A DNA stretch of 64,000 nucleotides from Takakia lepidozioides (GCA_030704615.1 CM060733.1:32550001-32614000), one strand, 5' to 3'. Positions 1,422-29,181 are shown, counted from the stretch's first letter. Notes: a model not told the origin generated them from the sequence alone. Numbers and translations are program-made.

Positions 1422-1836
1422 CCGTCAAGGTAGCAGGATTTGAACCCAGATTCACCTGGGTGGCTCTGAGTGCTCTATCCAACTAAAGATACAGACCGGT
1501 GGTCACGCTATTGTTAAGTTAAAGAAATGACTGTAAAACAAAACATTATGGACCAAATTAGGAATACAAGAGATTTTGACTGAGTGACTTGAAAGGTGCC
1601 ACTTGGCAAGCGGGGGTGCGTGATATATGAAATCAGACCCCACAGTCGATAAGGGTCTAGTCGTGTAGTCGAGGTGCAGGCAGGTCCGAGCTTGCGAGCT
1701 ATGGATTCTCTGCTGCCCTGCTCCTACTAGACCATGCCAGTGGGTGCGAGATAAAGAAAGAAAGGAAGAGGGAGGGGGACAGCAATCGAAGGGGAGAGGG
1801 AGGAGGGATTGGGAAGGGGGCCACAAGAAGTGGCCC

Positions 1837-3738
1837 ATGGATCACAGTGAGGAGCTGGAGTATGGGGGAAACTTGGATGTGGGAGAGTTTATGGGAGATG
1901 AAGGAGATGGGTTGCAGGACGATGAGCTGAGTGATGACGATATTGATGTGGACGAGCTTGAGAAGAGAATATGGCGGGACAGGTTGCGGCTGAAGCGAAT
2001 CAAGGAAGATCAGAAGCAGAAGGAGGTGGATGAGAGACCCAGGCAGAAGCAGTCACAGGAGCAGGCGCGGCGGAAGAAGATGTCGCGCGCACAGGACGGA
2101 ATTTTGAAGTACATGCTGAAAATGATGGAGGTTTGCAAGGCGCAGGGGTTTGTGTACGGGATTATTCCTGAGAAAGGGAAGCCGGTGAGCGGGGCGTCGG
2201 ACAACATCCGGGCATGGTGGAAGGAGAAAGTGAGATTTGACAGAAATGGTCCAGCAGCCATAGCCAAGTATCAGTCAGAGCATGGGCTGCCTGGGAGACC
2301 CAAAGGTAATCCAAGTGCGGCCCCCACCCCCCACACACTTCAGGAACTGCAGGATACCACACTGGGCTCCCTGCTTTCTGCTCTCATGCAGCACTGCGAC
2401 CCACCGCAGCGGCGATATCCCTTAGAGAAAGGAGTTTCCCCGCCGTGGTGGCCCTCGGGCGAGGAAGAATGGTGGCCTCAAGTGGGGTTACCCGCAGGGC
2501 AAAGGGCGCCACCCTACAAGAAGCCCCATGATTTGAAGAAGGCCTGGAAAGTGGGTGTGCTGACCGCTGTTATTAAACATATCTCACCTGACATTGCGAG
2601 AATTCGGAAGCTTGTGCGGCAGTCAAAGTGCTTGCAAGACAAGATGACTGCAAAGGAAAGTGCAACGTGGCTCTCAGTGTTGAATCAAGAGGAGGCCCTT
2701 GCCCGGCTGGAGAATGGTGCAGGGGGGATGGTCAACAGAGTGGGTACGCAAGGAAACAACAATGCAGGGCGCCTGGCTGTGATCAGTGCTAGTGAGTTTG
2801 ATGTGGAAGGTCTGGATGGTTTTCCGAATGGTGTGTCGCAGAGCGATGATGGTCAGGATGGAGACACTGACGATTACGACCCTTTCAGTGGTAGCCGACC
2901 ATCCTGCTTGACGTCGCAGGTTGGCAGCTGGGGAGGCAGGGATGATGATTCACTGGTTGTAGACTACGACCACTTGTCAGTGAGGTTGCAGGATGGTGAT
3001 ATGTTTGAAGTGGGGAGAACCAAACGAGTATTTGGGGAAGCCTTGATTCCAGAGCAGCGAGTGTATAGGTGTCCTTTTACAGATTGTCAACATAATGAGT
3101 GGCGGCAGGCATTTGCGGATCGAGATTTGAGGAATATGCATCAGGAAACGTGTCCTTTCAGACCTGATGCACAAGGTGCAGCTGGGGCCATGTACTCTGG
3201 GATGGTACTAGGACAACCTTCCCCTCTACATGGCCTTGCTGGGATGGGTCATTTTCAGCCAGGGGGCCTTCCTGGAAATCATAGGGTAGTACAAGGTGCT
3301 CCTGGATTTGCTTCTGCTCCTCTACCAGTGCCACAAACCATGGCAATCAGTGGGAACCAGGTGTTCCATGATTTGTTTGTGGGGTTATATGGGACAAATG
3401 GGCTGCAAGGGGAAAGTTCGTTTGCAGCTGGAAATGTGGGTTCATTGGAAGGTCAAGGGCAGGGAAATCTCCATCTAAAGGTCTATGAAGAAAACTTAGT
3501 GTTCGGACAGGGGTCTGGGGATGGTACGAGTGAAAGTGACATGAGTGTTGAGAACAGTGGCTTGCAGACAGACAGAAAAACTTTTGTCCACCATTTTGAA
3601 CACCAGGGCGATGAGATATCACCCGAATATGATTTTAGCTCCTCCTTTGATATGGGCGTGGAGCCCCCTGGTCCACTTGGGGGCACAGTAGAGTTGAGTG
3701 GCATGGAAGAGGATCTCATCTGGTACTTTGGGGCATAG
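1837..3738 (+). CDS. EIL: ETHYLENE INSENSITIVE 3 / EIN3-like transcription factor, intronless
   Basis: EIN3 domain signature sequences: [117 protein letters not shown]. First ATG is at 1837; the ORF-track start at 1744 is a GTG. Confidence 0.96.
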
Positions 3739-7619: not shown

Positions 7620-8151
7620 CATTGAACCAAGCTGGAATTAGGTTTTAGGTTATAGAGTTTTCTAGGGTATATTGAAACATAGTATTCGGTATGAATGGAA
7701 AAGAAAATATGGGAAAGTGTACAGATGACTTGGCACCTATGAAACTTTGTTAATGAAATATCCCAACCACATATTGTATCCAAATTTATATGAGGAATGT
7801 GAATCAAATAGTGGAGTTTGGTTTAGGGTTTAGGGTTTTAGAAAACTGTAAATGGACAAACAATTATGGAGTTTGAGTCTTTACCCATACGTAGATTAAT
7901 TCATGAAATATTATCCCCACCACTTCGACCGTACCCAAAATTGGAAGTAATAAATAAATAAGCATCAAACATTGAAATTAGGTTTTAGGGTATAGAGTTT
8001 GCGAGGGTACTAACCATAATACTCGGTATGAATGGAAAAGAAAATATTGGGAAGGGTACAGATGACTTGTCACCTATGATTTAGGGTAGGGAATAAAATT
8101 TCCCAACCACAGATTGTATCTAATCTATGAAGAATGCGCATCAAACAATGG
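7620..8151. repeat. AT-rich degenerate tandem repeat (~340-bp unit) with TTTAGGG telomere-like motifs; resumes at 19219-~19600 after the Gypsy insertion
   Basis: The blocks GAATTAGGTTTTAGG, ATGAATGGAAAAGAAAATAT, CCCAACCAC and AAATGGACAAACAATTATGGA recur at ~7630, ~7975 and ~19260-19600. Confidence 0.7.
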
Positions 8152-8468
8152 TGTCAAGTTATCTTACCACTAGTGTGAAACTAGCTAGGAAATAACTAGC
8201 TTTTACATATTGACATTTGGGATTGGCCCAAGTGTCAATCCAGGGGTCAAGGCATATTTAGGCACTGGAGTGGTTATCTTCACGGCAAGCGCGGGAGGCT
8301 CATCTTTCTCGAGTTGAGCCTCACCGCGCCTAGCTATGGCGCCGTAGTGTGGATTCCCCATGGCGTGGGGTGCACTTAGCTTGACTTGTATTTGAGTGAT
8401 GAGGTTATATATGCATGAGTTTATGCTTCAGCTTTGTGAGCTCGTGCTTGTATTCTTCTTCTTTATCA
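8152..8468 (+). repeat. Terminal repeat segment A1
   Basis: TGTCAAGTT...TTCTTTATCA. Near-identical to 18722-19041 and 20525-20850. Confidence 0.9.
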
Positions 8469-8484
8469 CTCGAGAAAGACGAGC
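8469..8484 (+). promoter_or_regulatory. Primer-binding site complementary to LTR sequence 8298-8313 (putative self-priming)
   Basis: CTCGAGAAAGACGAGC pairs with GCTCATCTTTCTCGAG at 15/16 here and 16/16 in copy 2. There is no TGG tRNA-type PBS. Confidence 0.7.
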
Positions 8485-9919
8485 TCGTATTTGTGAGTGC
8501 CAGATACGAGTTAGTTATAGCACTTGTGGTTTTTGCTTGAGAATGAAAGAAACCAGGTTATTATGCAATGAGCACCGTGGAGCTCTTGGTTGTTAGAAGC
8601 GGAGGCGATGTGGGTTACGAGGTAGTAGACCTTGGCATTCAATCTTCAGCTTCAGAGATAAAAGCACCATGCTGCAGGTAATTCTAGAGCACCTTGATGG
8701 TTTCAGATTGTGTACATGCATGAGCAAGCACGATTGGGAAGAGGACCAGTCAAGAGCATGTTAGAGTGGCTTTGGTGACAAAGCTGAGAACTGGACTTGG
8801 GAATGCGAGTTTTCATCGTGTGAAGGATTACAAGACCAAGCAAAAGGGCTGATTTGGCTTGGGGCAAATCAGTGCACTTTGTGGAATATGTTGAGATTGG
8901 GTTTCAATCTCGAGCTTCAGCATTGAGAGGGCTCTTGTCATGGCAAGAGGAGGGCTGGAATAGGAGCTAAGAGGTGCGGCAAGGCCATGGAATGTGCACC
9001 TAGGGTTTTAGAGCTTGGAAAAAGAGCTCTTGCACCACAAGAGGAGTGTCTTATGGCTGGAAATGTAAGCCTTAGGGTTTCAGGAGCTTGGCAAGGGCTG
9101 TGGAGTGCTTAGTCTTGTCTTAGAGAGCATCAAGGAGCCAAAGAGCCAAGATAGGGGGCTGATATTACCTCTTGTGTGAAGAGGATGCATGTGTGGAGCA
9201 TGCATGCAGCCCATTGAAGCTTCCATCTTCAAGCTTGGAGGGCAAGCAAGGAAGAGGGAAGGGCTGACTTCTCTTATGTGAGGGCAACGCATGTGTGGAG
9301 CATGCTTTCAGCCCATCGAAGGCTTGTACTTTCAGGTTTGGGAGTGCAAGAAAGAAAGCAAAGGGGCTGATTCTCTTGTGGTGAGAGTGGGGTATGTGTG
9401 GAGCATGCCTTCAGTCCATTGGGCTTTTGTTTTCAAGCTTTAGAGAGCTAGAATGGAAGGGCTAGGGCTGGTTCCCACTTGGGTGAAAGAAAAACACTTG
9501 TAGGGCATATGTGAGGTGGGGTTTCAACCTCAAGCCTAGATAGAACATGGCTCTTGAAGTGGCAGGTGTAGGGGGCTGGAATAGGCTCTAAGACAGATGC
9601 TATGGCCAAGGAAAAAGGAAAAATGAATGAGTGCTCACAAGGGCTGGAAACCAGCAAGGCTTGGTTGTTTGTCATTGAGTTTAGTGGCGTGTTTGGGGAG
9701 TCTAAGTGAGAAAGAAGGCTTGGTTTGTGGCAACCATCTTCCTCATGGCTTAGGGCTACTATTGGTGGTGTGTGGGAGCCGAAAGAGCAAGAATACCTTG
9801 CTGATTTCTTCATAGCCGCCATAGCTCGGTGCAAAGAAGCCTAGAGTCCAAGAGACACAAACCCTAGCTTGGCGTGGCTAAACCCTTGGAGAAATGGCTA
9901 AACTGCCATGAGTGGCCAT

Positions 9920-10400
9920 GGATGGGGCTGTGACGGGCTGTGGCATGTAGGGCCGTGATCCTGTGACTTGTGTAGGGTTGTGATGGGCTGTGATAGGTGG
10001 CCTGTGGGGCTGTGACGGGCTGTGATGGGCTGTGAGGGGCTGTGACAGGGTGTGCCCTGTGGGCTGTGGGGCTGTGAGGAGTTGTGATGGGCTGTGAGGG
10101 GCTGTGACAAGCTATGCCATGTGGCCTGTGGGGCTGTGACAGGATGTGCCATGTGGCCTGTGGGGTTGTGAGGGGCTGTGACAGGCTGTGGCCTTTGGGG
10201 CTGTGACCCCTATGACCTTTATAAGGCTGTGACAGGCTGTGCCTGTGGCCTTTGGGGTTGTGATGGGCTGTGACAGGCTGTGACCTGTGGCCTTGGGGGC
10301 TGTGACAAGTTGTGACCTGTGGCTTTTGGGGCTGTGACGGGCTGTGGCTTGTGTGGGGCTGTGACGGATGATCTGTGTGGGCCTGTGCTGGTCTGTGGTG
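9920..10400 (+). repeat. GGGCTGTGAC-type minisatellite in the retrotransposon 5' leader (copy 1)
   Basis: Dozens of degenerate GGGCTGTGA(C/G/T) units. The homologous, longer array is at ~22385-23180. Confidence 0.9.
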
Positions 10401-11316
10401 GCCCGTGTTGACCTGTGGACGGCCTGTGCTGACTCGTGGAGGCACTGGTGGACTGCCTAAGGACTGGCATGTGGTCTTGAAGGCCAAATTTTGAAGCTCG
10501 TGGAGGGCGGTTTGAGGAGTATCTTCATGATATTCTCATGGTCATGCAAATGAGGGAAGAGATGAGAAAAAGAGTGTTGGGATGAGGGCATGTTGGGGTT
10601 AGGCATTGCTTTAGCTTCTCTTCCTCATAGTTTTCCACCCTCTCATTAGGCCAAGACCTTTCCGTAGGTGGAGGCAAGAGTCAGTCCGGGTTTGGGCTAG
10701 GGTGTCCTTGCAGAAGCAACACCATGGAGTTGTTTTTGGTGTGGGGGAGTTGTCGTTCTGATTTCTTGTGTTTGGATCCTCTCCATACCTGCATGCTTGA
10801 CTGTGCGTCATGTTAGTTTTGTGTGGGCGCTTGTTTTTATAGGTGATTGGTCCGGATTTGATCACCCGCCAGTCCAAGAGCATGTTGTCGATGGTGAGGC
10901 TGGGGTGATGACCAGTCATACCATCATTGTTTCTCCTATGGTGAGGTTGGAGGTAATGACCAGCCAACCATAGGAGTGCTTGCGGTGGATGCAGGTGCAT
11001 GTGTAGGCTATGTTAGGAACCTAGTATTCCAAACCATAAGCCGCAACAGGTTCTCTACCTGGTTACCTTGTGGAGAGGGGGTTAGGGACATGTTCATGAC
11101 CGGTTGAGTGACAGTTTGTCAACACGGAGGTGCCACTAGTTGCTGGGGACAGTGCCGGTTCGAGCACTACCGATACTAGTGGATACGCGAGACGAGGTGT
11201 GCGGTTTAGGCCACCTTCACCTCCTGTGTCTTCTACGGAAGGTTCTGATTCGGATTGTGAATCAGGAGGACTCACACCGGCGGTGCAAGTTGTTTCCTTG
11301 CCATTGTTGTGGGACA

Positions 11317-12500
11317 CAATGGAGGAGATGTATGGTGCTACCAAGGGGCCACGAAGGTACTCTGGGGCGGTAGGCACCATCAAGTTGGATGATTTTATCC
11401 AAGAGTTTGATAGTTGGTGTGATTTGCAGCAAATGCGCAATCCACAACTATTTACGCATTTCATGGCATGGAAGGGGCTGTTTCAGCACCTTGAGGGGCC
11501 GCCTATGGATGATTACCATGAGTTCAGGCGGGGGCATGAGGTTGAGATCGAGGAGTGGAGGATGTACTAGTCACCCAACTATGTCTCCATCACTAGGGGC
11601 ATTAGAGTCACGAGGGCAGTGGCTACACCTGCCGCTACACCGGCAGCAGTGGGACTGGTGGTACCATAGCTACGACATCCACCCAAGCCACTACCGCACC
11701 AGCACCAGTACTCCTGCCTGCCTTCAACCCTGTTGTGGAGTTCTTCGAAGAGTTGAGAGGGAACTACCAAGGGGTGATGACAGAGAAGTTGCAGAGCTTA
11801 CAAGAGTTCCAATGGAAGCCGACTGAGAGCTTGAGGGAGGCTTTCACTCACATGAGGTGCTTGATAAATATAACCCAAGGAGTTACGAAAGCTCAGGCAG
11901 TCCAATTTTGGTATGGGATATTGGACAAGGAGCTGAGGAGAAGGGTGGGGGATGCAACTCTCCTACAAGCGGCCCAACCCACCTTAGCAAATGTGTTTTT
12001 GCTGGCAGAACGGATAGAGCTCAACATGGTGGAGGAACGAGTGGTCATGGTGGAATTTGCTAAGGAGACACCACGGGGTAGTGGTGCTCCTAGCCAACCA
12101 CTACCTCAACGTGCTCAAGGCAACAAAGGGGCTCAGGTGAAGCTCAGGGAAGGGCAGAGAGGACCTCAGATGCAAGGGTCTCTCCCTTCATTTGCTGGCC
12201 AACAACGGGCGGATGTGGTGTGCTGGACATGTGGAGGACCCCATGTCAAGAAGGATTGCCCAGAGGGAGCCAAAGGGCCGGCACATGCATAGCCTGCACA
12301 GTTGCAGTGTAGGCCTTGTGGCAAGCACGGGCATGGAGAGGCCCAGTGTTATGGTTTGCATCCTAAGTTGCGCCCAGGCCAGTTCCAAGGGAACAATGGT
12401 GGCCGGGGGCGAGGTGGAGCAGCCCAGAGAGGACGAGGTGGCCAGGCACGAGGTGCATGCCAAGGGCAAGCTCAACATGGCCAAGGACGCGGAGGTCAGG
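11317..12500 (+). pseudogene. gag: Gypsy gag (copy 1), disrupted
   Basis: KLDDFIQEFDSWCD; FQWKPTESLREAF; zinc knuckles CWTCGGPHVKKDC and CRPCGKHGHGEAQC. Contains stops and frameshifts. Confidence 0.85.
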
Positions 12501-13415
12501 TCCCAGAGACGTCTGTATCTGGAAATGACAAGGCTCCATATCCGCCTTTGTGAGGCCCAAGCCTGCAATAACAGCTCTGCCTAGCATCAATGGCTGAGCT
12601 CCCGAGTCCAACAAGACCCACAGTGGCCGGTACCTCTTGCCTGCCGGTCCACTCAAATATAAAATGTCATCCTGGTTGTCTAACATGACAACTCCAGGTG
12701 TCACCATGGCGCGCTCAATGGCTGGCCTAGCTGGCAGCTCCATCAACCTGGCAACTGCAGCTTACCATGGTACCGCCGTGGCAGTCTTGACCCTCAAATC
12801 TGAGGATCCCTTCGGCACTACACCTCCCACTATCTCCGCAGAGGATGAAATAACCTCCCCACTCTCACAGAGTGTAGCTGTCAGCCTGAACACCTCAGTT
12901 GGTCTTACCCCCAGTGTCGCAATCATGGTAGCCGAGAACAATGGAGCCCGGCACATAGATGTGGCCGCCCCCGGCAGCACACTAGCTGCCGTAGCCTTGG
13001 CAACACTAGGTAGTGGTACTACCCGTGTAGCTCTCCCCAATGGCATAGTAACCTCCGCCTCGGTAACAGTCGGGCGAGAACTAGGTGCCATGGATGGCGT
13101 CGACATTGTCTCCGCCAATGTGAATGACTGAGGAAGCCTAGCCTGACGGCTTGCCTCCCCACATTGTGGATCCAACTCCACCTCCGCACCTCGTGGCTCA
13201 GGAACTCGTGCTGCTCCTCGGGTCACGGCTGCAGCAGACTCCACCTGCACTAATGGTAGTGTTGCTCCGCACATGAATCCCATGCCTCCCATATCTCCTC
13301 CCTCAGGAGCAGGAGGTGGACCATCCGGCCTTGGAGCCGGTACCACTTGAGCTGTAGCCATGGCAGCGAGCCTCTGCTCTAGCTGCTGAAGACGGTTGGC
13401 CATGCCTTGGTCAAC
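12501..13415 (-). pseudogene. Inverted gag-protease segment of copy 1
   Basis: Reverse complement of copy-2 ~25298-26209. Aspartic protease motif VLLDSGAQPL reads on the minus strand. Confidence 0.9.
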
Positions 13416-13849
13416 ACTTCACTCTGGATTTTTGGGAGCAGTCAGCTTCCTATAGGCTTGGATGGCAGTCAGGGGAGGGCCGGCGTGTACAGCTCCCTGT
13501 GACGTTCAAAGGAGGAGTTGCAGTTGCCCAACAGGCAAGATGCCGACACTAGCAGCATTCACAGCTGTAGTGACTTGGCCTGGAGAGTTGCTAGAGGGCA
13601 ACGCTCATTCAAAGGATGACACACCTCCAAGAGAGCAGGATGACATGTATGGTATGGCGGAGTTGCCTGCCATGGTTGCTTAGACTCCATTGTGGGGCAC
13701 GAGCAAGGATTTGTAGTGGGTTGCTGATCGACGGGTGCAACAAGCCTGAGTAGAGGCTTTTGTACCATCAGGAGAGGAGGAGAGTGTGGGGATTGCACCA
13801 GAACCACCTCAGTTGTCACCATTGGATTCCACACCTATTGTGTGGCAGT

Positions 13850-14800
13850 ATCCGGATGAAGACATTTGTCTTCTGGACTTGTTTGGCGGGATCAGCACCG
13901 AATTGGCTATTGTGTTACAGGCAGGTGTACGAGTTCGGCGTTACCTAAATGTGGAGAGGGATGAGACTGCACAACGCGTTTCACTTTGCTATGTTGCTCA
14001 GTTCGTGCAGCAGTACCCTGAGTTGTTGCCGGTGTCTGCAGTTCGTGGATATCAGCAGGCCTTGCCAACAGACATTTCGTTGCTGGGGGCGCAGGATTTG
14101 GAGCGGGTTGGCTCCATTGATCTGGTAGTGGCAGGTTGGCCCTGCCAAGTGTATTCATCAGCCGGGCATGGCAATGGATTACGAGACTCGAGGTCGGGTC
14201 TGTTTTGGGAGATGGTGCGGGTTTTGCGCCACTTGCAGCTTCATCAAGCTGTATCTCCAGCATATATCTTGGAAAACGTGCCACTGATGGGCGATTCTCG
14301 GGCCAGGGTGATGGCCAGTGTGCATCAAGTCTGGTCGTGGTTCGGGTCAGCAGTGTTGCTAGATGCAGCTATAGTGGGGTCACGGGCTCATCGTCCACGG
14401 CTATGGTGGACTAACTTGATGTCACCCGCACTGCTCAAGCGTGCATTTGATGGGGTGCGGTGGCCAGCACACCTCACAGTGGATAGCATTTTGGACACGA
14501 GGAGGGAGTCTCAGCGTATGAGACACGATGACCGTTCGCCGTTGGCAGTGGTCAACAAGGTGGGTCAACCACGAGCAGCATTATCTACACTGCTCAGCTT
14601 CCCAGGATCGCATGCTTTCCGGAATAGTGGACCTGGCCTCCTGTGGGATGCTCAGTTACAGCAGTTAGTGGAGCCTAATGCTGACGAGCGTGAGCGCACA
14701 ATGGGTTTTACCACTGGTACCATGGCGGTGCCGTCTCTTTCTGAGGCATCACGTCGTCAGGTGTTGGGGCAAGCAATGGATCTCAATTGCTTGACCTGTT
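13850..14800 (+). CDS. C5-cytosine DNA methyltransferase domain (DNMT3-like), retrotransposon-encoded, copy 1
   Basis: Motif I LLDLFGGIS, II YLNVERD, IV AGWPCQ (catalytic PC), VI YILENV, VIII RAHRPRLWWTN, IX ERERTMGF, X VLGQAMD, in canonical order and in one open frame within ORF 13786-14880. Confidence 0.92.
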
Positions 14801-15101
14801 GGCTATGGCTGAGCAATGCAGAGTGCGGAGTAAACTTCCCTCGCTGGTCTCTCTGCCTACCGAGACGGTACAGGCAGTGAGTGGAGACGAGCATGTGAGG
14901 ACCACGGGGTGCAGGCATCCATAGCACACGTGGGAGGTGCTCGAAGTTCAGAGGGAGTTGGCAGCCAAGGTGGTGGTGATGGATGAGGCTAGGGATTTTT
15001 CTCAGGTTGAGGAAGTCCTCGAGGATGAGATGATGGGCCAAGATGAGGCCTTGTCATTGACTGAGCAGGTAGGGAGTACTGCTCAAGAGATTGCAACATA
15101 A

Positions 15102-16600
15102 CAACTACTGGACGCATCCTCTACCTCTAAGCCCACCGGACTTAAGGTTGCAGTTACGGAGGACAATTGGGAGCCTGACATTGGACCCATTGTCACCGGA
15201 GGAGAGAGACGACGTATACGGCGGTTCCTGAGGGCTTACAGGAATTGCTTTGCCTTCAGTTTGAAGGACTTGGGAGCACTGAAGGGTCAAGAGATCCGTA
15301 TTGAGTTGGCCACTGATACGCCAATCTTTCGGAGACCCTATAGATACAGTGACATGGAGAGGTCTTTGATTCAGATGAGGACTCAAGATCTCTGGGAGGC
15401 AGGTTTGGTGGAGCTCTCGGGTGGAGAGTATGCTTCAGCCACAGTGATGCCAGCCAAGAAGGATGTCTATGGCAATTGGACGGAGAGACGTATGCGCGGT
15501 GATTACCGGCCTGTAAATCGTCAGACCAAGTCCGATAAGTATGCCATGCCAACACCAGAGGAGATCATTGATGCCATCAGGCATGCTAAGGTCTTTAGCA
15601 CTTTGGATTTACGATCCGGATATCACCAGTTGCCGATCAAGGAGGCGGACAAGCAGAAGACGGCATTCTGGGGGATCAATGAGCATAGCAAAGATTGCCT
15701 ATATCAGTGGCGGTTCTTACCATTTGGGCTTAAGAATGCTCCTGCAGAGTTTCAGAGAGTCATGGATAGGATTCTAGCAGGGGTGGACTTTGTTCGGTGT
15801 TACATAGATGACATCATCATCTTTAGTACTACGGTGGAGGACCATGAGAGACACCTTCAGGTGGTATTGGAGCGCTTGAGAGCGCACGGATTGAAGTTGC
15901 ATCCGAGGAAATGCAAGTTTTTCCACAACCAGATTGAGTATCTGGGTCATATGATATATCCTGGAGGATTGGGGGTACAACAGACTAAGGTAGAGGCCAT
16001 TGCACAAATTCCATGCCCCACGGATGTGAGCCGAGTTCGAGCTTTCATGGGGTTGGCAAACTATTATAGACGGTTTGTCAAGGGATTTAGTACCATTGCA
16101 AAGGCTCTAACAAAGCTGACCAAGGTGGACCAGGAGTGGCAATGGAAGATGAGCAGGAATGAGCTTTTCAAGAGCTCAAGGCAAGGTTGACTTCGGCGCC
16201 TATCCTGAGACGACATATCAGGGGGCATCCCTTTCAGCTGCATACGGATTGGAGCATGCTGGGGCTTGGAGCGGTGCTCATACAGGTGAATGATGAGGGA
16301 AGAGAGTTCGTAGTGGCTAATGCTAGCCGCTGGAACAATGCTGCAGAGGCTAAGTATAGCTTATATGAGGGAGAGTGCTTAGCTACAATGTGGGCCGTGG
16401 CACACTTCAGGTGCTATCTATACGTCAATCTCTTCACCCTTATCACGGATCACCAGCCACTCAAGATGGAGTCAGACAAGCTTACGGGGAAGCTTGCACG
16501 GTGGGCACTCATACTCTAGGAGTATGACTTTCAGGTTGTGCATCGACCGGGTTTGGTCAATCGGGATGCGGATGGATTGAGTCGCAATCCATGCACGAGC
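15102..16600 (+). pseudogene. pol: Gypsy reverse transcriptase and RNase H (copy 1), frameshifted
   Basis: DYRPVN, FSTLDLRSGYHQ, PFGLKNAPAEFQ, YIDDIII, YLGH, FMGLANYYRRFV. RNase H: LHTDWS..GLGAVL, YEGECLA, LITDHQPL. Confidence 0.93.
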
Positions 16601-16899
16601 CAGCAAAATGACACTGGAGCTCGTGGCATGGTGAGACGGACGAGGAGATGGTGCCGGGATGGCATGCATCTGCCTTTTTGTGTATCTTGGCATCAGGAGG
16701 TCAGGTTGGACCTACAACAGGGATGACTGTAGACGGAGTGTCTGAGGACCCTGAGGCTAGTGATGAGCTAGGTGGTACCAAAGATATACATGAGGATTCG
16801 GCTGTGCTGGACTACCTCCGTACTAGAGATAGGGCAGCCACTGTGACTGCCAAGGAGAGGGATCGGATCCTGCAACGAGCCAAGAGGTTCAAGTGGGAG

Positions 16900-17620
16900 G
16901 GGACACACCTGCTCCGAGTATGGGAGGATGGTCGGGTGAGGACTGTGCCTCACCCCACACAGCGTGCACGGTTAGTACGGCATGCCCATGAGGAGTTGGG
17001 GCATTTTGGAGTGCGACGCACTCACAGTTTACTGCAGGGGCAGTATTGGTGGCGTGGTATGCATACAGAGGTGCAACAGTTCGTGGCTAGGTGCATGGTG
17101 TATAACAGGGTGCGTGCTTCATTCAACGCCTCTATACCACAGTTGCATCATTTACCAATCATGGGATTGGGCTACAGGTGGAGTCTTGACTTCGCAGGAC
17201 CATTGCCACTGACTATGCGCCACCACAGATATGTGTTGGTGATGGTGGAACACTTCTCCAAGTGGATTGAGTTGGTTCCGTTGCCTGACAAAGCTAGTGA
17301 GGGGGCTGCGTATGCATTCTTGGATCGTGTGCTTAGCCGATTCGGTGCTCCAGCTGAGGTACTCACGGACCAAGGTAGAGAGTTATTGAGGGAGTTTCAG
17401 GCTTTGTGTGATAAAGTCTTGATAGATCACCGCACCACTTCTCGGGATCATCCTGAGGCCGATGGCTTGGCAGAGAGAGTTGTTCGCACGGTGAAGAGGG
17501 GTTTGCGCAAGTACGGCTTGCAGAAGGGACACCTAGGAGATTGGGATCTTCAGGTACCTTGGTTAGCCATGGGCTACCGGTTCAGCAAGCAAACCTCACT
17601 TGCCTCCTCTCACCATATTT
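16900..17620 (+). CDS. Gypsy DDE integrase (copy 1), C-terminus degraded
   Basis: HEELGHFG..YWWRGM..CMV zinc-binding region; WSLDFAGPLP, VLTDQG and DGLAERVVRTVK supply the D,D,E triad. Confidence 0.92.
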
Positions 17621-18138
17621 TCTTCTTCTCTTTGGCCGAGAGCCAAATTTGCCTGCAGGCATTCGTAGGGACAAACTGCCCAGTCCTTAACCTGAAATTA
17701 GACGATTCTGGGACGGTGTTGGGTCAGCGTTGCAGGTGATAGTCGTGGCGGTGCAGAGTTGTTCAATGAAGTCGCTAAGTGCATGCCCATTGCTTTGAGA
17801 TTGACCGAACCTTGTCATTGCCACAGCACGACCAGTGTATACGTTGAGGTATTCCACTACTCACGCTGGTGCGGATATATCGTCCTAGGGTTCGAGAGTT
17901 TATGCCCTGGTCTACCTATGTTTATCTTGCAGCAGACTGCTCCTACGACCCTGGATGTGACTGTGCAAGGCGTGTTATTCTGAGGATTCGAGAGGTGTTG
18001 CCCTCAGGAGTCCTGATCTTGGAGGGTCGGATGGCATGACTTGGAAGGATCATGTGCGTAATTGTGCGTCATATCACCTTCCAATGTTGATGGCCAAGTT
18101 GACCCAAACTTGGCACTTGGCTACTGCAGGTTTTGAGG

Positions 18139-18268
18139 TGCATGCTCTGTGGTCTGCCCAAAGAGGCAGCCACCATGCTGGTGTGTGATCAATGCTCAAG
18201 AGGTTGGCTATGGGATGCTTGACACCACTCCTGAGAGGTTCCTGACGAGATTGGTTGTGTCCACATTC
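18139..18268 (+). pseudogene. PHD finger at the integrase C-terminus (frameshifted)
   Basis: CMLCGLPKEAATMLVCDQCSRGW[fs]MGCLTPLL[fs]VPD[fs]DWLCPH fits the C4HC3 PHD consensus CxxC..LxCDxCxxxxHxxCLxPPLxxVPxxxWxCPxC. Confidence 0.8.
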
Positions 18269-18521
18269 TTTGGATAGTGGCAGTGGACATGACTGGAGGC
18301 AGCTAACAAGACATGGGAGGCCCACTCATAGGAGTAACACGAGATCCCAGGCTCAATTCACAGGTTGCAATACGAGCGACTAACGATGGGGCAACTCTTG
18401 CACCCGGCCTCTTGATCTATCGAGTTTTAGTGTAGTAGGGATAGTGGTGGAGAACTTAGTGAGGCTATGGTCACTATCGCATCTTGTGGCACTTGGACTT
18501 AGAGGGACCTAAGCACTAGCT

Positions 18522-18531
18522 AGGGGGGCGA
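18522..18531 (+). promoter_or_regulatory. Polypurine tract
   Basis: AGGGGGGCGA lies immediately before repeat B1. Confidence 0.7.
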
Positions 18532-19218
18532 TTGTGTGGACTAGTGACTACCATAGTGGGCAGCATAGTGGCAGCCTAGTGACTGACTAGTTGTAGCCTA
18601 GTGGTTGGACTAGTGGCTGGACTAGTGGTGGACTAGTGGTATACTAGTGTGTGGTGTGCACATGTGTTGTGTGGTTTTGGACACGTGGTAGTTGTGTAGC
18701 GATATATTGCGGCACGACAGCTGTCAAGTTATTTTTACCACTAGTATGAAACTAGCTAAGAAATAGCTAGCTTTTACATATTGACATTTGGGATTGGCCC
18801 ATTGTCCACCAGGGGTCAAGCGCAGATTTAGGACTGCCCTGAAAAGTGGTTATCTTCACGACAAGCTAGTGAGGCTCATCTTTCTCGAGTTGAGCCTCAC
18901 CTCCTAGCTATGGCGCCGTAGTGTGGATTCCCCATGGCGTGGGGTGCATTTGGCTTGACTTGTATTTGAGTGATGAGGTTATATATGCATGAGTTTATGC
19001 TTCAGCTTTGTGAGCTCGTACTTGTATTCTTCTTCTTTTCATTATGTGGACTAGTGACTGCCATAGTGGGCAGCATAGTGGCAGCCTAGTGACCTGACTA
19101 GTTGTAGCCTAGTGGTGGACTAGTGGTTGACTAGTGTTATACTAGTGTGTGGTATGCACTGTATTGTGTGGTTTTGGACAGTGATGTAGTTATTGTATCG
19201 ATATGTATGCGCACGACA
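18532..19218 (+). repeat. 3' terminal repeat block B1 (18532-18719) - GC - A2 (18722-19041) - B2 (19042-19218)
   Basis: B1 and B2 both begin TT(G/A)TGTGGACTAGTGACT, contain ACTAGTGG repeats and end GCACGACA. A2 matches A1. Confidence 0.88.
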
Positions 19219-22200
19219 ATGGAGTTACATTTAAGGGCTTAGGGTTTAGGGTTTAGAGAACTATAAATGGACAAACAATTATGGAATATGACTCTTTACG
19301 TGGAGGTCGTACAACAATTCAGGAAATATCCCCTCCACTTCGACCGCACCCAAAACTGGAAGCACTAAATTAAATAGGCATCAAACCATTGGAATTAGGT
19401 TTTAGGGTACGGATTAGTTAGTCGTAGTAAGACATACTACTGTATGTATGGCGACCAAAAAATCTGGGAAAGTGTACATTGACTTGTCACCCTAAGAAAT
19501 TAGACTTGATGAAAGATCCCAAGGGCCATTCTATTATGCCCAACCTTGTAACCCTTGAAGAATGTGCATCAAACATTCGAATTAGGTTTGGGTTATATGG
19601 TTTTAAGGTGATGACAATGTAAGGACTGAAGGTCCCCAAAGTATTGTCTTTAAAGGTTCTAATAAGATAAACAGACCCAGATAAATTGACTTGAGATGAC
19701 ATGGAATAACGGGTGCAAGCAGTATGTTCATTGAATGATTGTACTGACAAGAAAAACGATAGTCTCGAAATAAGTAAATGCCACGCGGTTTATACTCAAG
19801 ACATTTTTAGACCAATTATATTGAGCCCAACAATACGACCATGTGGACCGAGAATGAATGAGATGGGCGAATCTGTTGAGGAGAAGACACTTTGGTGAGA
19901 ACCAGAGAACCAAAAGAATGGATGTAATGTGAGTGAGGAACTGCAAAGAGAAGGAAGCAGTGACATCAGGAAAACTAGGAACTCCGGATGATCACTCGAG
20001 TTTCCTGAAACGTTACAAAGATGAGGTCCGGAAAAAGCTGGTGGTTGGCAAAGAAGGTAGATTAATATTTGAGCACTGAAGAAGAACAAATGGAGAGTGG
20101 AGGTAAAACATTAGTTTTATTCTTGAAAACAAGCCGAAGAGTGAACCTCCAATATGTCCTTGTCAACCTTGTTCTCCGTCCGAGGTTGCATTGTCTTCAT
20201 TGTCTTACTGTTGATTGGCCTCATCCAAATTTGCTCGTGCTTCTCCGCCTCCACCGTGTAATTTTCTTAAGCTATTACGTGTCGTGTTTTTTTTGGCGGG
20301 CATTGTCTAAATGACAGAGTTAATGTCAATCCACTGAGGGGGATAATCTGGATTGAACTCCCAAACTTTGGACCAACAATCTCTGTACCTATCGAAATCG
20401 AGGGTACCTCCTTTCTTGGGTCTCCACCATTCGACGTGAACCTTCTTAAAATTCATGTCTGTCGCGGACTACATCTGATGATCCGGATATCAGTGAGGAG
20501 CTTGATGGTACTAAGGATGTGCATTGTCAAGTTATTTTACCACTAGTGTGAAACTAGCTAGGAAATAGCTAGCTTTTACATATTGACATTTGGGATTGGC
20601 CCAAGTGTCAATCCAGGGTCAAGGCAGATTTAGGCCCTGGAGTGGTTATCTTCACGGCAAGCGCGGGAGGCTCATCTTTCTCGAGTTGAGCCTCACCGCG
20701 CCTAGCTATGGCGCCGTAGTGTGGATTCCCCATGGCGTGGGGTGCACTTGGCTTGACTTGTATTTGAGTGATGAGGTTATATATGCATGAGTTTATGCTT
20801 CAGCTTTGTGAGCTCGCATGAGCTTGTGCTTGTATTCTTCTTCTTTATCACTCGAGAAAGATGAGCTCGTATCTGTGAGTGCCAGATACGAGTTAGTTGT
20901 AGCACTTGTGGTTTTTGCTTGAGAATGAGAGAAACCAAGTTGTTATGCAAGGAGCACCGTGGAGCTCTTGGTTGTTAGAAGCGGAGGCGATGTGGGTTAC
21001 GAGGTGGTAGACCTTGGCATTCGATCTTCAGCTTCAGAGATGAAAGCACCATGCTGCAGGTAATTCCAGAGCACCTTGATGGTTTCAGATTGTGTACATG
21101 CATGAGCAAGCACGATTGGGAAGAGGACCAGTCAAGAGCAGGTTATAGTGGCTTTGGTGGCAAAGCTGAGAACTGGACTTGGGAATGCGAGCTTTCATTG
21201 TGTGAAGGATTGCAAGACCAAGCGAAAGGGCTGATTTGGCTTGGGGCAAATCAGTGCACTTTGTGGAGTATGTTGAGATTGGGTTTCAATCTCGAGCTTC
21301 AGCATTGAGAGGGCTCTTGTCATGGCAAGAGCAGGGCTGGAACAGGAGCTAAGAGGTGCGGCAAGGCCATGGAATGTGCACCTAGGGTTTCAGAGCTTGG
21401 AAGAAGAGCTCTTGCACCACAAGAGAAGTGTCTTGTGGCTGGAAATGTAAGCCTTAGGGTTTCAGGAGCTTGGCAAAGGCTGTGGAGTGCTTAGTCTTGT
21501 CTTAGAGAGCATCAAGGAGCCAAGGAGCCAAGATAGGGGGCTGATATCTCTTGTGTGAAGAGGTTGCATGTGTGGAGCATGTATTCAGCTCATTGAAGCT
21601 TCCATCTTCAAGCTTGGAGGGCAAGCAAGGAAGAGGGAAGGGCTGACTTCCCTTATGTGAGGGCAATGCATGTGTGGAGCATGCTATCAGCCTGGTGAAG
21701 GCTTGCACTTTCAGGTGTGGGAGTGCAAGAAAGGAAGGAAGGGGCTGGTTTCCCTGTAGGGCATGTGGAGCATGCTTTCAGCCTGCTGAAGCTTGTATTT
21801 TCAGGTTTGTGGGTGCAAGAAATGAAGCAAAGGAGCTGATTCTCTTATGGTGAGAGTGGGGCATGTGTGGAGCATGCCTTCAGCCCATTGAGGCTCTTGT
21901 TTTCAAGCTTTAGAGAGCTAGAACGGAAGGTCTAGGGCTGGTTTCCACTTGGAGTGAAAGAAAAGCACTTGTAGGGCCTATGTGAGTTGGGGTTTCAACT
22001 TCAAGCTTGAAGGGAGCGCAACTCTTGAAGCAGCAGGTGTAGGGGGCTGGAATAGGCTCTAAGACAGATGCTATGGCCAAGGAGAGTGCTTGAATGAGTG
22101 CTCACAAGGGCTGGGAACCAGCAGGGCTTGGTTGTTTGCCATTGAGTTTAGTGGCGTGTTTGGGGAGGCTAAGTGAGAAAGAAGGCTTGGTTTGTGGCAA

Positions 22201-22384
22201 CCACCTCATGGCTTAGGGCTACTATGGTGGTGTGTGGGAGCCGAAAGAGCAAGAATACCTTGCTGATTTCCTCACAGCCGCCATAGCTCGGTGGAAAGAA
22301 GCCTAGAGTCCAAGAGACACAAACCCTAGCTTGGCGTGGCTAAACCCCTTGGAGAAATGGCTAAACTGCCAGAGCGGCCATGGA

Positions 22385-23180
22385 TGGGGCTGTGACGGGC
22401 TGTCTGTGGCTTGGGGTTTTGACGGCTGTGCCGATGGCCTTTTGGTTGTGACGGGCTGTGAGGGGCTGTACAGGCCGTGCCTGAGGCCTTTGGGGCTGTG
22501 AGGGGCTGCGCCGGTGCCTTCAGGGCTGTGACAGGCTGTGCCGGGCTACGGCCGTTGGCCTGGGGCTGTGACGGGCTGTGAGGGCCTGTGAGGGCCTATG
22601 CCGGTGGCCTTCGGGTCGCGACGGGCTGTGAGGGCCTGTGACGGGCTACGCCGGTGGCCTTGGGGGCTGTGATGGGCTGTGGGGCTGTGCCCGTGGCCTT
22701 TTGGGCTGTGATGGGCTTGAGGGGCTGTGACAGGCCGTGCCTGAGGCCCTTTGGGGCTGTGACGGGCTGTGAGGGCTGTGTCAGCCGTGCCTGAGCCTTT
22801 GGGGCTGTGGCAGCTGTGAGGGCTGTGAGGGGCTGTGACCGGCTGTGCCCAGTGGCCTGCGGGGCTGTGACGGGGCTGTGCCCAGTGCCTGTGGGCTGTG
22901 ACGGCTGTGGCTGGGCTGTGACAGGCTGTGCCAGTGGCCTGTGGGGCTGTGATGGGCTGTGACGGCTGTGATAGGCTGTGCCCTGGCCTTTGTGGCTGTG
23001 AGGGGCTGTGAGCTGTCCCAGTGGCCTGTGGGGCTGTGAGGGGCTGTGACAGGCTGTGGCGGCTGTGCCTGTGGCCGTGGGGCGTGATGGCTGTGACAGG
23101 CTGTGAGGGGCTGTGACAGGCTGTGCCTAGTGGGCCTGTGGGACTGTGACGGCTGTGACCAGTGAGCTGTGTGGGCCTGT
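22385..23180 (+). repeat. GGGCTGTGAC-type minisatellite in the leader of copy 2
   Basis: Same motif as 9920-10400 but expanded. Confidence 0.9.
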
Positions 23181-24105
23181 GCTGGTCTGTGGTGGCCCGT
23201 GTTGACCTGTGGACGGCCTGTGCTGACTCGTGGAGGCACTGGTGGACTGCCTAAGGACTGGCATGTGGTCTTGAAGGCCGAATTTTGAAGCTCGTGGAGG
23301 GCGGTTTGAGGAGTATCTTCATGATATTCCCATGGTCATGCAAGTGAGGGAAGAGAGGAGAGGAAGAGTGTTGGGATGAGGGCATGCTGGGGTTAGGCAT
23401 TGCTTTAGCTTCTCTTCCTCGTAGTTTCCACCCTCTCATTAGGCCAAGACCTTTCCGTAGGTGGAGGCAAGAGTCAGTCCGGGTTTGGGCTGGGGTGTCC
23501 TTGCAGGAGCAACACCGTGGAGTTGTTTTTTTGGTGTGGGGGAGTTGTCGTTCTGATTTCTTGTGTTTGGATCCCCTCCATACCTGCATGCTTGACTGTG
23601 CGCCATGCTAGTTTTGTGTGGGCGCTTGTTTTTATAGGTGATTGGTCCGGATTTGATCACCGGCCAGTCCTAGAGCATGCTGTCGATGGTGAGGCTGGGG
23701 TGATGACCAGCCAGACCATCATTGTTTCTCCTGTGGTGAGGTTGGAGGTGATGACCAGCCAACCATAGGAGTGCTTGCGGTGGATGCAGGTACAGGTGTA
23801 GGCTATGTTAGGAACTTAGTATTCCAAACCATAAGCCGCAACAGGTTCTCTACCCGGTTACCTTGTGGAGAGGGGGTTAGGGACATGTTCATGACCGGTT
23901 GAGTGTCAACACGGAGGTGCCACTAGTTGCTGGGGACAGTGCCGGTTCGAGCACTAGCGATACTAGTGGGTACACGAGACGAGGTGTGCGGTTTAGGCCA
24001 CCTTCACCTCCTGTGTCTTCTACGGAAGGTTCTGATTCGGATTGTGAATCAGGAGGACTCATACCGGCGGTGCAAGTTGTTTCTTTGCCATTGTTGTGGG
24101 ACACA

Positions 24106-26800
24106 ATGGAGGAGATGTATGGAGCTACCAAGGGGCCACGAAGGTACTCTGGGGCGGTGGGCACCATCGAGTTGGATGATTTTATCCAAGAGTTTGATAG
24201 TTGGTGTGATTTGCAGCAAATGCGCAATCCACAACTATTTACGCCTTTCATGGCATGGAAGGGGCTGTTTCAGCACCTTGAGGGGCCGCCTATGGATGAT
24301 TACCATGAGTTCAGGCGGGGGCATGAGGTTGAGATCGAGGAGTGGAGGATGTACTGGTCACCCACTATGTCTCCATCACTAGGGGCACTAGAGCACGAGG
24401 GCAGTGGCTACACCTGCCGCTGCACCGGCAGCTTCAGCAAGTAGCAGTGGGACTAGTGGGACTGGTGGTACAGTAGCTACGACGTCCACCCAAGCCACTA
24501 CCGCACCAGCACTAGCAGCCGTGCCTGCCTTCAACCCTGTTGTGGAGTTCTTCGAAGAGTTGAGAGGGAACTACCAAGGGGTGAGGACAGAGAAGTTGCG
24601 GAGCTTGCAAGAGTTCCAACGGAAGCCGACCGAGAGCTTGAGGGAGGCTTTCACTCGCATGAGGCGCTTGATAAATGTAAGCCAAGGGGTTACGGAAGCT
24701 CAGGCAGTCCAATTCTGGTATGGGATATTGGACAAGGAGCTGAGGAGAAGGGTGCGGGATGCAACTCTCCTACAAGCGGCCCAACCCACCTTAGCAAATG
24801 TGTTTTTGCTGGCAGAGCGGATAGAGCTCAACATGGTGGAGGAACGAGTGGTCATGGTGGGATTTGCTAAGGAGACACCACGGGGTAGTGGTGCTCCTAG
24901 CCAACCACTACCTCAACGTGCTCAAGGCAACAAGGGGGCTCAGGTGAAGCTCAGGGAAGGGCAGAGAGGACCTCAGATGCAGGGGTCTCTCCCTTCATTT
25001 GCTGGCCAACAACGGGCGGATGTGGTGTGCTGGACATGTGGAGGACCCCATGTCAAGAAGGATTGCCCAGAGGGAGGCAAAGGGCCGGCACATGCACAGT
25101 TGCAGTGTGGGCATTGTGGCAAGCACGGGCATGGAGAGGCCCAGTGTTATGGTTTGCATCCTGAGTTGCGCCCAGGCCAGTTCCAAGGGAACAATGGTGG
25201 CCGGGGCGAGGTGGAGCAGCCCAGAGAGGACGAGGTGGCCAGCCACGAGGTGCAGGCAAGGGCAAGCTCAACATGGCCAAGGACGCGGAGGTCAGGGGTT
25301 GACCAAGGCATGGCCAACCGGCTTCAGCAGCTAGAGCAGAGGCTCGCTGCCATGGCTACAGCTCAGGTGGTACCGGCTCTAAGGCCGGATGGTCCACCTC
25401 CTGCTCCTGAGGGAGGAGATATGGGAGGCATGGGATTCATGTGTGGAGCAGCACTACCACTAGTGCAGGTGGAGTCTGCTGCAGCCGTGACTCGAGGAGC
25501 AGCACGAGTTCCTGAGCCACGAGGTGCAGAGGTGGAGTTGGATCCACAGCGTGGGGAGGCAAGCCGTCAGGCTAGGCTTCCTCAGTCATTCACATTGGCG
25601 GAGACAGTGTCGACGCCATCCATGGCACCTAGTTCTCGCCCGACTGTTACCGAGGCGGAGGTTACTATGCCATTGGGGAGAGCTACACGGGTAGCACCAC
25701 TACCTAGTGTTGCCAAGGCTACGGCAGCTAGTGTGCTGCTAGGAGCGGCCACATCTGTGTGCCAGGCTCCATTGTTCTCGGCTACCATGATTGCGACGCC
25801 GGGGGTAAGACCAGCTGAGGTGTTCAGGCTGGCAGCTACACTCTGTGAGAGTGGAGGTTACTTCATCTTCTGCGGAGATAGTGGGAGGTGTAGTGCCGGA
25901 GGGATCCTCGGATTTGAGGGTCAAGACTGCCACGGCGGCGCCATGGCAAGCTGCAGCTGCCAGGTTGATGGAGCTGCAGCTAGGCCAGCCATTGAGCGCG
26001 CCATGGTGACACCTGGAGTTGTCATGTTAGACAACCAGGATGGCATTTTCTGTTTGAGTGGACCGGCAGGCAAGAGGTACCGGCCACTGCGGGTCTTGTT
26101 GGACTCGGGAGCTCAGCCATTGATGCTGGGCAGAGCTGCTATTGCAGGCTTAGGCCTCACGGAGGCGGATATGGAGCCTTGTCCTTTCCAGATACAGACG
26201 TCTCTGGGAGGATCGGAGCAGGCTCGGGGCATGACACGGCGTGAGTTGGCTATCAGACTACGGCCGGATCACCCTACAGATGGCTCAGTGATGCGAGCCA
26301 AGGCCATTGTGACAGACGCGGTCTCATACGATGTCCTGGTTGGTGGGGCAGTGTTGTACCCCATGGGCTTCACCCTGGATTTTTGGGAGGAGTCAGCTTC
26401 CTATAGGCCTGCATGGCAGTCAGGGGAGGGCCGGCGTGTGCAGCTCCCTGTGACGTTCATAGGAGGAGTTGCGGTTGCCCAGCGAGGCAAGATGCCAACA
26501 CTAGCAGCATTCATATCGGCAGTGAGTTGGCCTAAAGAGTTGCTTGAGGGCAACACTCATTCAGAGGATGTGCCACCTCCGGGAGAGCAAGATGATATGT
26601 ATGGTATGGCGGAGTTGCCTACCATGGTTGCTCAAACTCCATTGTGGGGCACGAGCAAGGATTTGCAGCGGGATGCTGATCAACGGGTGCAACAAGCCTG
26701 GGTGGAGGCTTTTGTACCGTCAGGAGAGGAGGAGAGTGCGGGGATTGCACCAGGACCACCTGAGTTGTCTTCATTGGACACCACACCTATTGTGTGGTAG
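24106..26800 (+). pseudogene. gag: gag-protease of copy 2
   Basis: Two CCHC knuckles (CWTCGGPHVKKDC, CGHCGKHGHGEAQC). Protease motifs VLLDSGAQ and YDVLVGGAVL. Local frameshifts; TAG at 26798 corresponds to CAG in copy 1. Confidence 0.88.
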
Positions 26801-28890: not shown

Positions 28891-29181
28891 ACCATGACAG
28901 AAAAGAACACTTGGGATGCCTTGTGCTTGTTAGTGGGGCTGCTCGACGCTTCGTCTCCAAGCCAGGGAGAATTGAAATTCACATGGTCGAACAACAGGGA
29001 CCCCCCTCACTTGTGCCAGGCTCGGCTGGACAGATTTTATTGCTCCTACACTCTGAAGTCTTGGTCAACCAGCGTCCCGCTGCAACCTATCCTCCCGGAG
29101 TTTGACCATGCCATGGTGCAATTGATGCTCAACACCATTAGGAAGGAGCAAACTGGCTTTCTCAAAGATCGCATGATCTTA
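28891..29181 (+). mobile_element. L1-type LINE APE endonuclease fragment
   Basis: KFTWSNNR..QARLDRFYCS..FDHAMV matches the APE motifs FTW, RLDRF and SDH. Confidence 0.8.

Follow-up and report, generated by a model that had tools for sequence, protein, structure and literature searches.

Why would a transposon carry an enzyme of the kind that silences transposons? The question dates from 2018 and has stood in part because the known hosts are difficult experimental subjects; it is raised here by a locus of Takakia lepidozioides. In the 64,000-nucleotide stretch of DNA that we analyzed (the window), two copies of one retrotransposon are found (8152-19218 and 20525 to ~28890; ~90-95% alike). The window element belongs to a Ty3/gypsy family that is high-copy in an early-branching moss; it is present here in decayed form and encodes a DNMT3-like cytosine methyltransferase. 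It has the Ty3/gypsy domain order protease–reverse transcriptase (RT)–RNase H–integrase, and the order across the family is Gag–protease–DNMT–stop–RT–RNase H–integrase–PHD; the original prediction, which placed the methyltransferase between the protease and RT of an LTR retrotransposon polyprotein, holds in this respect. The coding features are as follows.

11319-12500, plus strand: gag with two zinc knuckles; stops and a frameshift break the frame
12501-13415, minus strand: inverted 915-bp segment holding the gag-protease spacer and protease start; 95% inverted match to 25298-26209
13840-14790, plus strand: domain of a DNMT3-like C5 cytosine methyltransferase; motifs I-X follow the canonical order
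13873-14781: copy 1 DNMT motifs: I 13873-13908; II 13951; IV GWPCQ 14134; VI LENV 14269; VIII AHRPRLWWTN within 14362-14415; IX 14686; X 14764
15099-15107, plus strand: in-frame stop with CARYYA readthrough-type context between ORF1 and RT (TAA CAACTA in copy 1)
15258-16517, plus strand: reverse transcriptase and RNase H with a frameshift and stops (PF00078, E=8e-35)
16612-17739, plus strand: DDE integrase, H2C2 and rve (PF17921 and PF00665)
18139-18270, plus strand: C-terminal PHD finger, frameshifted (PF00628, E=0.0016 over the first 23 aa, under the Pfam cut-off)
20525-28890, plus strand: copy 2, with A repeat, leader, gag-protease ORF 24392-26800, broken DNMT ~26790-27725, TAG at 28038, and RT cut off near 28890

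The genes that share the window identify the host.

1669-3738, plus strand: EIN3 transcription factor, intronless
40704-41471, minus strand: SARAF-family ORF
42985-46266, minus strand: PPR-DYW RNA-editing factor with ~6.4 near-tandem 303-bp PLS repeats at 83% identity
53496-56835, minus strand: exons of a further PPR gene

The EIN3 protein is placed, with support 99/98 in a 27-row tree, as sister to the remaining nine rows of the Physcomitrium-containing clade, and its best named matches spanning most of the protein come from Physcomitrium, Riccia, and Marchantia. The host is an early-branching moss; the land-plant origin that had been predicted is confirmed by the EIN3 placement and the PPR-DYW gene, and an assembly contaminant was rejected on the same two genes. 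The near-tandem repeats of the PPR-DYW gene indicate recent internal duplication. Two plus-strand segments (28891-29346 and 37896-38819), which resemble LINE endonuclease and C-terminal regions, have no Pfam match; the first starts where copy 2 breaks off. A search for tRNA genes found none in the window. Copy 1 sits within a ~340-bp host repeat with TTAGGGT telomere-like motifs (7633-8151 and 19219-19605), other contigs span the site, and this repeat may be a preferred insertion target. The leaders of both copies are 2.8 kb or longer and contain long, degenerate GGGCTGTGAC tandem arrays of differing length (9900-10370 and 22385-23200).

From one sequencing run (X1), 103,190 contigs align to copy 1, a figure that is not a copy number. 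Summed depth over the DNMT is about equal to that over RT in these contigs.

The presence of the domain is well above chance expectation. A stop-free frame (13750-14880) matches PF00145 (E=2.3e-13) in the HMM search that had been proposed as a check. Against PDB entries, phmmer ranks DNMT3A/3B/3C best (E=2e-8), ahead of HhaI (7e-5) and DRM (0.015-0.14), and a profile of 18 homologs gives the same leader (DNMT3 1e-25; DRM 3e-13; HhaI 3e-7). An AlphaFold model built on a 99-row alignment has a pLDDT of 91, and all 34 Foldseek matches listed for it are DNMT3 entries (top E=4e-18, TM ~0.7), at about 20% identity to human DNMT3. The predicted DNMT3-like C5-methyltransferase is borne out by the phmmer, profile, and fold matches, and so is its canonical motif order (I, II, IV, VI, VIII, IX, X), unlike that of the permuted DRMs; DRM identity was rejected because the domain is not circularly permuted. 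The domain, which is intronless and lies within the polyprotein region, is on motif, profile, and modeled-fold evidence a DNMT3-like, unpermuted, predicted methyltransferase. Host plant DNMT3s (PpDNMT3a/b, as described in PMC6453930) and animal DNMT3A/B share its canonical order, FGGI/FDGI-type motif I, AHR-R-W-N motif VIII, and fold, whereas the window DNMT is embedded in a polyprotein and has no DUF3444, PWWP, or ADD. Pfam finds just PF00145, and no DUF3444, on the window ORF and on the homolog P0124; a captured host DNMT3 was rejected on the missing DUF3444.

Neither copy in the window is intact. Motifs I, IV, VI, VIII, IX, and X had been predicted in both copies; copy 1 has the full set, but in copy 2 a 6-bp gap falls in motif I and a 17-bp gap deletes motif VI. 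The further claim that the DNMT is in frame with gag-protease in both copies fails for copy 1, where 12501-13415 is inverted relative to copy 2, the protease is in minus orientation, and the DNMT frame contains four stops upstream of the domain. This inversion is a derived lesion, because family contigs connect 12500 with 13417 on opposite strands. In copy 2 the claim stands in part: gag, protease, and the N-terminal half of the DNMT share one frame, but stops at 26798, 26876, and 27726 lie in or just ahead of the DNMT, and RT is incomplete. Copy 1 also has private changes in motif I and beside the catalytic Cys, with E at a position that is G in 27 of 29 bryophyte homologs and V at one that is G in all 30 of 30. 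Read as they stand, both window copies are broken and neither can itself be active.

Divergence between the two copies is as expected for such remains. Copy 1 versus copy 2 gives dN/dS of 0.73 for the DNMT and 0.48-0.64 for the other domains (four domains, two dead copies), against a Ka/Ks <0.2 among copies taken as the mark of purifying selection on the DNMT in the Gypsy-Dnmt3 kind. These ratios would reflect postinsertion decay, with no selection visible at that depth, and are uninformative on function. Substitutions of C that distinguish the copies are elevated at CG and CHG sites, a pattern that host MET1/CMT silencing would give equally and that makes no element-specific methylation signature; the CpG observed/expected ratio of the element (0.50) shows no special depletion relative to host genes (0.39-0.48). 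Frameshifts in copy 1 are dense from ~17580 to the 3′ end, and its left A repeat (A1, 8152-8468) is nearer to the A of copy 2 (20525-20850; 98%) than to its own second A repeat (A2, 18722-19041; 95%), which hints at intercopy recombination or at poorer sequence quality there.

Constraint is visible at greater depth. The catalytic Cys is kept in 30/31 bryophyte-group, 41/46 other protease-DNMT, and 143/143 chlorophyte-type rows, and the motif VI Glu in 34/37, 46/46, and 143/143, respectively; both motif VIII Args are retained to a degree similar to the catalytic Cys. Marchantia Mp4g09160 shares 76% identity in the gag core (copy 2), 57% in the protease, and 69% in the DNMT, versus 37-42% in the linkers. 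High DNMT identity against low linker identity is the pattern of long purifying selection and argues that the DNMT is a maintained part of the element. In 83 of 143 chlorophyte-type DNMTs (P0149, P0151, and others), motif IV reads GWECQ in place of GWPCQ, with the Cys kept.

Relatives extend from algae to bryophytes. A search with the DNMT returned 136 near-length and 51 longer proteins; the named homologs belong to Marchantia polymorpha (where gene models are numerous), M. paleacea, Riccia, Calypogeia, and Sphagnum, most of them at ~55-72% identity, and Spirogloea is also represented. No vascular plant is named among the matches listed, an absence made weak by masking of transposable elements. 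A profile search gave 582 clusters at E up to 1e-30; the named entries among the 20 looked up are Klebsormidium nitens GAQ93235.1, four Closterium clusters, and a Scenedesmus pol. The K. nitens protein has the knuckle–protease–DNMT order of the window family. Sorting 332 proteins by architecture, we found 38 that stop after protease-DNMT, 18 with the DNMT before RT in one ORF, 88 with the DNMT after RT/RNase H, 28 with the DNMT before integrase, and 150 with the DNMT alone.

An unrooted DNMT tree separates, at a 97/91 split, a protease-DNMT type from an RT-RH-DNMT-IN-PHD type (Scenedesmus). The former side comprises the window, bryophytes, Spirogloea, Closterium, and Klebsormidium, with the bryophyte rows at 100/100. 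When the tree is rooted on 11 prokaryotic/viral methyltransferases, all retrotransposon DNMTs form one group (SH-aLRT 99), and Klebsormidium falls outside a branch uniting the other streptophyte rows with the chlorophyte type. Under this rooting, the proteins of protease-DNMT architecture do not form one clade, and the support of its branch in the RT tree is just 32. A phylogeny with charophyte retrotransposon DNMTs had been proposed as a check: These DNMTs do fall in one group, but Klebsormidium is no nearer to the window family than the chlorophyte type once the tree is prokaryote-rooted. The RT tree joins the window with Marchantia (95) and L017, a relative found on a genome contig (99), then with Closterium (89), in agreement with the DNMT tree. 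Tree subsets were 229 DNMT rows, 74 RT rows, 49 rows (23/62 chlorophyte-type), and 51 rows (18/62), with host DNMT3 sequences absent from all DNMT trees. On these trees, the window DNMT is related by descent to that of the K. nitens element. A lineage held in common with that element and lasting into embryophytes had been predicted, and it proves wider than envisaged, taking in mosses, liverworts, Spirogloea, Closterium, and Scenedesmus.

Scans of other collections added few members. Among 17 loci from genome contigs, two are true relatives, L017 (1-9285) and L018 (1-10362); each is a whole DNMT-gypsy element within a bacterial bin, likely as eukaryotic (plant or algal) contamination. The L017 DNMT is 49% identical to that of the window, and L018 is a chlorophyte-type element with a DNMT 37% identical. 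The PHD finger is whole in L017 and in Marchantia P0156; L018 has a weak Tudor-like match after its PHD. Scanning metagenomes with the window protein alone turned up 15 loci, every one an unrelated methyltransferase (28-46%); three viral-contig scans yielded a single locus, itself unrelated; and the ESM Atlas gave generic methylase clusters only. Bacteroidota methyltransferases with DNMT3-like motifs I and VIII were also seen (L019-L028 and L030-L032; 22-28% identity), and these may possibly be relatives of the DNMT3 ancestor.

What distinguishes the window family is the boundary between DNMT and RT. The original prediction had the DNMT within a single polyprotein; the frame is indeed shared with RT, but an in-frame stop separates the two in both copies (15099 and 28038), ~105-110 codons past motif X. 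The copy 2 stop reads TAG CAACCA, and the wider family agrees: In run X1, G at 15101 accounts for 148,038 of 150,589 summed depth, runs X2, X5, and X12 are alike, and in all four runs no alternative letter reaches 2% at 15099-15100, 15102-15105, or 15107 and no indel is listed, so that almost all aligned depth is TAG CAACCA. In L017, where both ORFs are whole, ORF1 ends TAG CAATCA, in frame with RT-RH-IN-PHD. Stop-CARYYA is a readthrough consensus (PMC5397192), and among 2,677 stop-like triplets on the plus strand of the window, just 6 have this context. ORF1-like ends, 85-110 aa past motif X, occur in 27 of the 90 homologs with a recognizable motif X. Five liverwort and Sphagnum gene models (P0073, P0127, P0128, P0132, and P0145) continue from DNMT into RT with the linker missing, and are likely spliced predictions.

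The UAG-CARYYA stop is likely read through. With a readthrough-type stop after it, the DNMT would be made at the level of Gag, and RT and integrase would follow by occasional readthrough. Some algal relatives (P0146, P0458, and P0461) hold DNMT and RT in a single ORF, and in the chlorophyte-type group the DNMT lies between RNase H and integrase; Gag-level dosage is therefore unnecessary for the lineage overall.

The ends of the element depart from expectation as well. The features that define them in copy 1 are listed below.

8148-8151, plus strand: left target-site duplication ATGG, 4 bp, identical to 19219-19222; the adjoining host repeat unit resembles the empty site
8152-8468, plus strand: repeat A1, left end, begins TGTC; 95% to A2 and 98% to the A of copy 2 (gaps excluded)
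8298-8314, plus strand: predicted self-primer arm at the RNA 5′ end, complementary to 8468-8484
8468-8484, plus strand: primer-binding arm directly after A1, with no tRNA-type TGG start
18522-18531, plus strand: G run, polypurine-tract-like, directly upstream of B1; equal position in L017 and L018
18531-18719, plus strand: repeat B1, internal; 95% to B2 (gaps excluded)
18716-18725, strandless: palindrome GACAGCTGTC at the B1-A2 joint, formed by right terminus, GC, and left terminus
18722-19041, plus strand: repeat A2
19041-19218, plus strand: repeat B2, right end, last bases GACA
19219-19222, plus strand: right target-site duplication ATGG

The element had been called an LTR retrotransposon; the gypsy polyprotein supports that name, but the ends are not ordinary LTRs and follow instead the layout A-coding-B-A-B. 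Copy 1 reads A-coding-B-GC-A-B, starts with TGTC, finishes with GACA, and is flanked by the 4-bp ATGG duplication. An ordinary paired-LTR element was rejected on its split repeats, self-complementary primer arm, and lack of a tRNA primer site, and DIRS identity on the presence of rve and H2C2, the 4-bp duplication, and the lack of a tyrosine recombinase match. The B1-A2 joint recurs in family contigs and in L017, and L018 matches it at 8 of 10 positions where its contig ends; a G-rich purine tract upstream of B is common to the window family, L017, and L018. The self-primer pairing is perfect over 12 nt in copy 1 and extends over 17 nt in copy 2 and 13 nt in L017; the gap between the arms is 163 nt in both copy 2 and L017, with two compensatory changes, and 0 of 300 shuffles matched the pairing length for copy 2 or L017. 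Self-priming is known from Tf1/Sushi and plant Tcn1 elements (PMC6317226), which likewise have no tRNA primer site and an arm complementary to LTR-internal sequence. Compared by features, the window family differs from these in its PHD in place of a chromodomain, its DNMT, and its permuted ends; the chromodomain looked for as a mark of the REXdb lineages Chromovirus Tcn1/Chlamyvir or Phygy was not found in L017 ORF2, which has a PHD instead.

Because the purine tract precedes B1 and the primer site follows A1, the LTR made by reverse transcription would be B-GC-A. We infer that the inserted form is this product with the permutation point lying in the left LTR. Most simply, a 2-LTR circle would likely close, and integrase would then make staggered cuts at one palindrome, behind the CA of each strand. 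Foamy virus offers the precedent: Its integrase cleaves the palindromic joint of 2-LTR circles to give integration-ready ends (PMC1180852). The foamy virus palindrome is the LTR-LTR joint itself, whereas that of the window family lies inside the RT-defined LTR, so that cutting would permute the ends. L017 assembled as a circle, the outcome of any collapsed repeat and no evidence for a real one.

A different origin of the split ends, independent of what the DNMT does, has some precedent and strikes us as unlikely: a DIRS/PAT-like route, with RNA running from A1 into B2 and the inner B-A joint as template, or else a recombinant, with integrase trimming linear DNA in the ordinary way. A-coding-B-A-B is a known layout of Ngaro/PAT-like elements (PMC6681497), and the closer match of A1 to the A of copy 2 (98%) than to its own A2 (95%) hints at recombination or at poorer 3′-end sequence. 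Against this origin stand the DDE integrase and 4-bp duplication, with no tyrosine recombinase found, and the purine tract and primer site that define B-GC-A as an ordinary RT-made LTR. The joints also recur in family contigs and the layout is reported for the Klebsormidium element (DIRS-like, A-coding-B-A-B; PMC5890265), so A-coding-B-A-B is not private to copy 1. We retain circle closure and palindrome cutting as the working route.

The kind of element is known. KnitGypsy-Dnmt3 of Klebsormidium nitens (de Mendoza et al. 2018, PMC5890265), for which that paper describes DNMT acquisition in the K. nitens lineage, was later named under "streptophytes (Gypsy-DNMT3)" (bioRxiv 10.64898/2026.05.21.726589), and two later papers refer to the kind as "streptophyte." It shares with the window family the gypsy domains, an intronless unpermuted DNMT3-like domain, and DIRS-like repeats. 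It differs in its host, that of the window being a land plant in which the family is very abundant, and in its ORFs: The K. nitens DNMT is reported in a Pol ORF shared with RT (PMC5890265), whereas that of the window family ends ORF1 before a readthrough-type stop. The available text of PMC5890265 makes no mention of a self-primer or palindrome, and "PHD" has no match in its main text. On these comparisons, we class the window family as a variant of the Gypsy-Dnmt3 kind, marked by a fixed stop between DNMT and RT.

Other retrotransposons that carry methyltransferases are more distant. SymbioDIRS-Dnmt3 has a DNMT3 and A-coding-B-A-B repeats but a tyrosine recombinase rather than a DDE integrase, dinoflagellate hosts, and a separate capture; its enzyme methylates CG in yeast (PMC5890265). 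EpiLTRs of Cymbomonas and Euglena likewise combine a DNMT with a chromatin reader in an LTR element, but the DNMT is near DNMT4, DAM and a chromodomain are present, and the authors call them distinct from Gypsy-DNMT3 (bioRxiv 10.64898/2026.05.21.726589).

What, then, would the enzyme do for the element? We lean toward the view that the DNMT is packaged in bulk at the level of Gag and methylates the new DNA of the element before insertion, with insertion likely from a palindrome-cut circle. The RNA would start inside A1 and self-prime, Tf1-style, on the arm right after A1. The UAG-CARYYA stop would be read through occasionally, leaving RT, integrase, and PHD scarce and the DNMT as abundant as Gag; protease would free the DNMT, which would then be packaged. 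Reverse transcription would yield an LTR from purine tract to primer site (B-GC-A), and the linear copy would close into a 2-LTR circle, creating the A-B joint. If one GACA-GC-TGTC site were then cut in staggered fashion, behind the CA of each strand, the outcome would be the usual processed ends together with the A-coding-B-A-B layout. The packaged DNMT would meanwhile methylate the new DNA, probably at CG or CH as DNMT3s do, so that it arrives premarked, and the PHD finger would likely steer the choice of insertion site. The cDNA methylation idea originates with PMC5890265, and the dosage argument is added here: Self-methylation of cDNA is plausible, and the Gag-linked position of the DNMT, upstream of a leaky-type stop, speaks for it. 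When the Klebsormidium enzyme was put into yeast, no DNA methylation was seen, a result its authors call inconclusive (PMC5890265).

A fuller version of this scheme we hold only tentatively: an ancient gypsy lineage, running from algae to mosses and liverworts, that would load hundreds of DNMT3s per particle via a leaky stop, methylate its cDNA before insertion, prime without tRNA, and, with its integrase site moved to an internal palindrome, depend on the 2-LTR circle as obligatory substrate. For most LTR elements, that circle is a dead end.

The DNMT may instead act after insertion or in trans, methylating integrated copies, flanks, or rival elements and so damping transposition or marking the site rather than the cDNA in the particle. 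The readthrough layout, which would yield far more DNMT than integrase, speaks for this; de novo methylation of heterochromatin by the moss host DNMT3b (PMC6453930) and the listing of slowed transposition as an option in PMC5890265 also favor it. A domain that sits in the polyprotein between protease and RT is nonetheless expected inside the particle, and the RNase H-DNMT-integrase fusion of the chlorophyte type suits a role on preintegration DNA; we regard action after insertion as improbable.

Somewhat more doubtful is that the DNMT is kept for binding or regulation over bulk methylation; covering or methylating the palindrome, which holds CAG/CTG, might for instance time integrase or block autointegration. 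Palindrome and DNMT do co-occur in both architectural groups among the DNMT-bearing relatives compared, and no activity was seen for the Klebsormidium enzyme in yeast (PMC5890265), but SAM-binding and catalytic residues are all kept. That the domain is a neutral passenger (a recently captured host DNMT3 fragment, a nested insertion, or a contaminant contig) is scarcely credible: In its favor, neither copy is intact and dN/dS between them is close to neutral, but position and motifs are alike from algae to liverworts and mosses, which largely refutes the reading, the DUF3444 carried by host plant DNMT3s (PMC6453930) is missing, moss EIN3 and PPR-DYW genes lie in the window, and RT and DNMT trees concur for the window, Marchantia, L017, and Closterium. 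Methylation of cDNA by a packaged DNMT is the reading that we carry forward.

The kind being known from Klebsormidium, what appears to be new here is the land-plant family, the readthrough-type stop, the self-primer, and the palindrome. The literature that we consulted holds no land-plant report of the family, nor of six Marchantia gene ids, readthrough, self-primer, or palindrome; earlier supplements and figures may list bryophyte members. A distribution that takes in mosses, liverworts, zygnematophytes, Klebsormidium, and chlorophytes favors a single old capture over a Klebsormidium oddity. Counts of bryophyte DNMTs may be inflated by element copies annotated as host genes. If circles are the true substrate, they would be a second insertion mode for an LTR element with a DDE integrase, and finders of paired LTRs would be expected to miss such elements. 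Marchantia polymorpha, a model for which methylation mutants exist, has uninterrupted Gag-protease-DNMT frames of the family (e.g., Mp4g09160, P0124), and the question of why a transposon carries a transposon-silencing enzyme is therefore directly testable.
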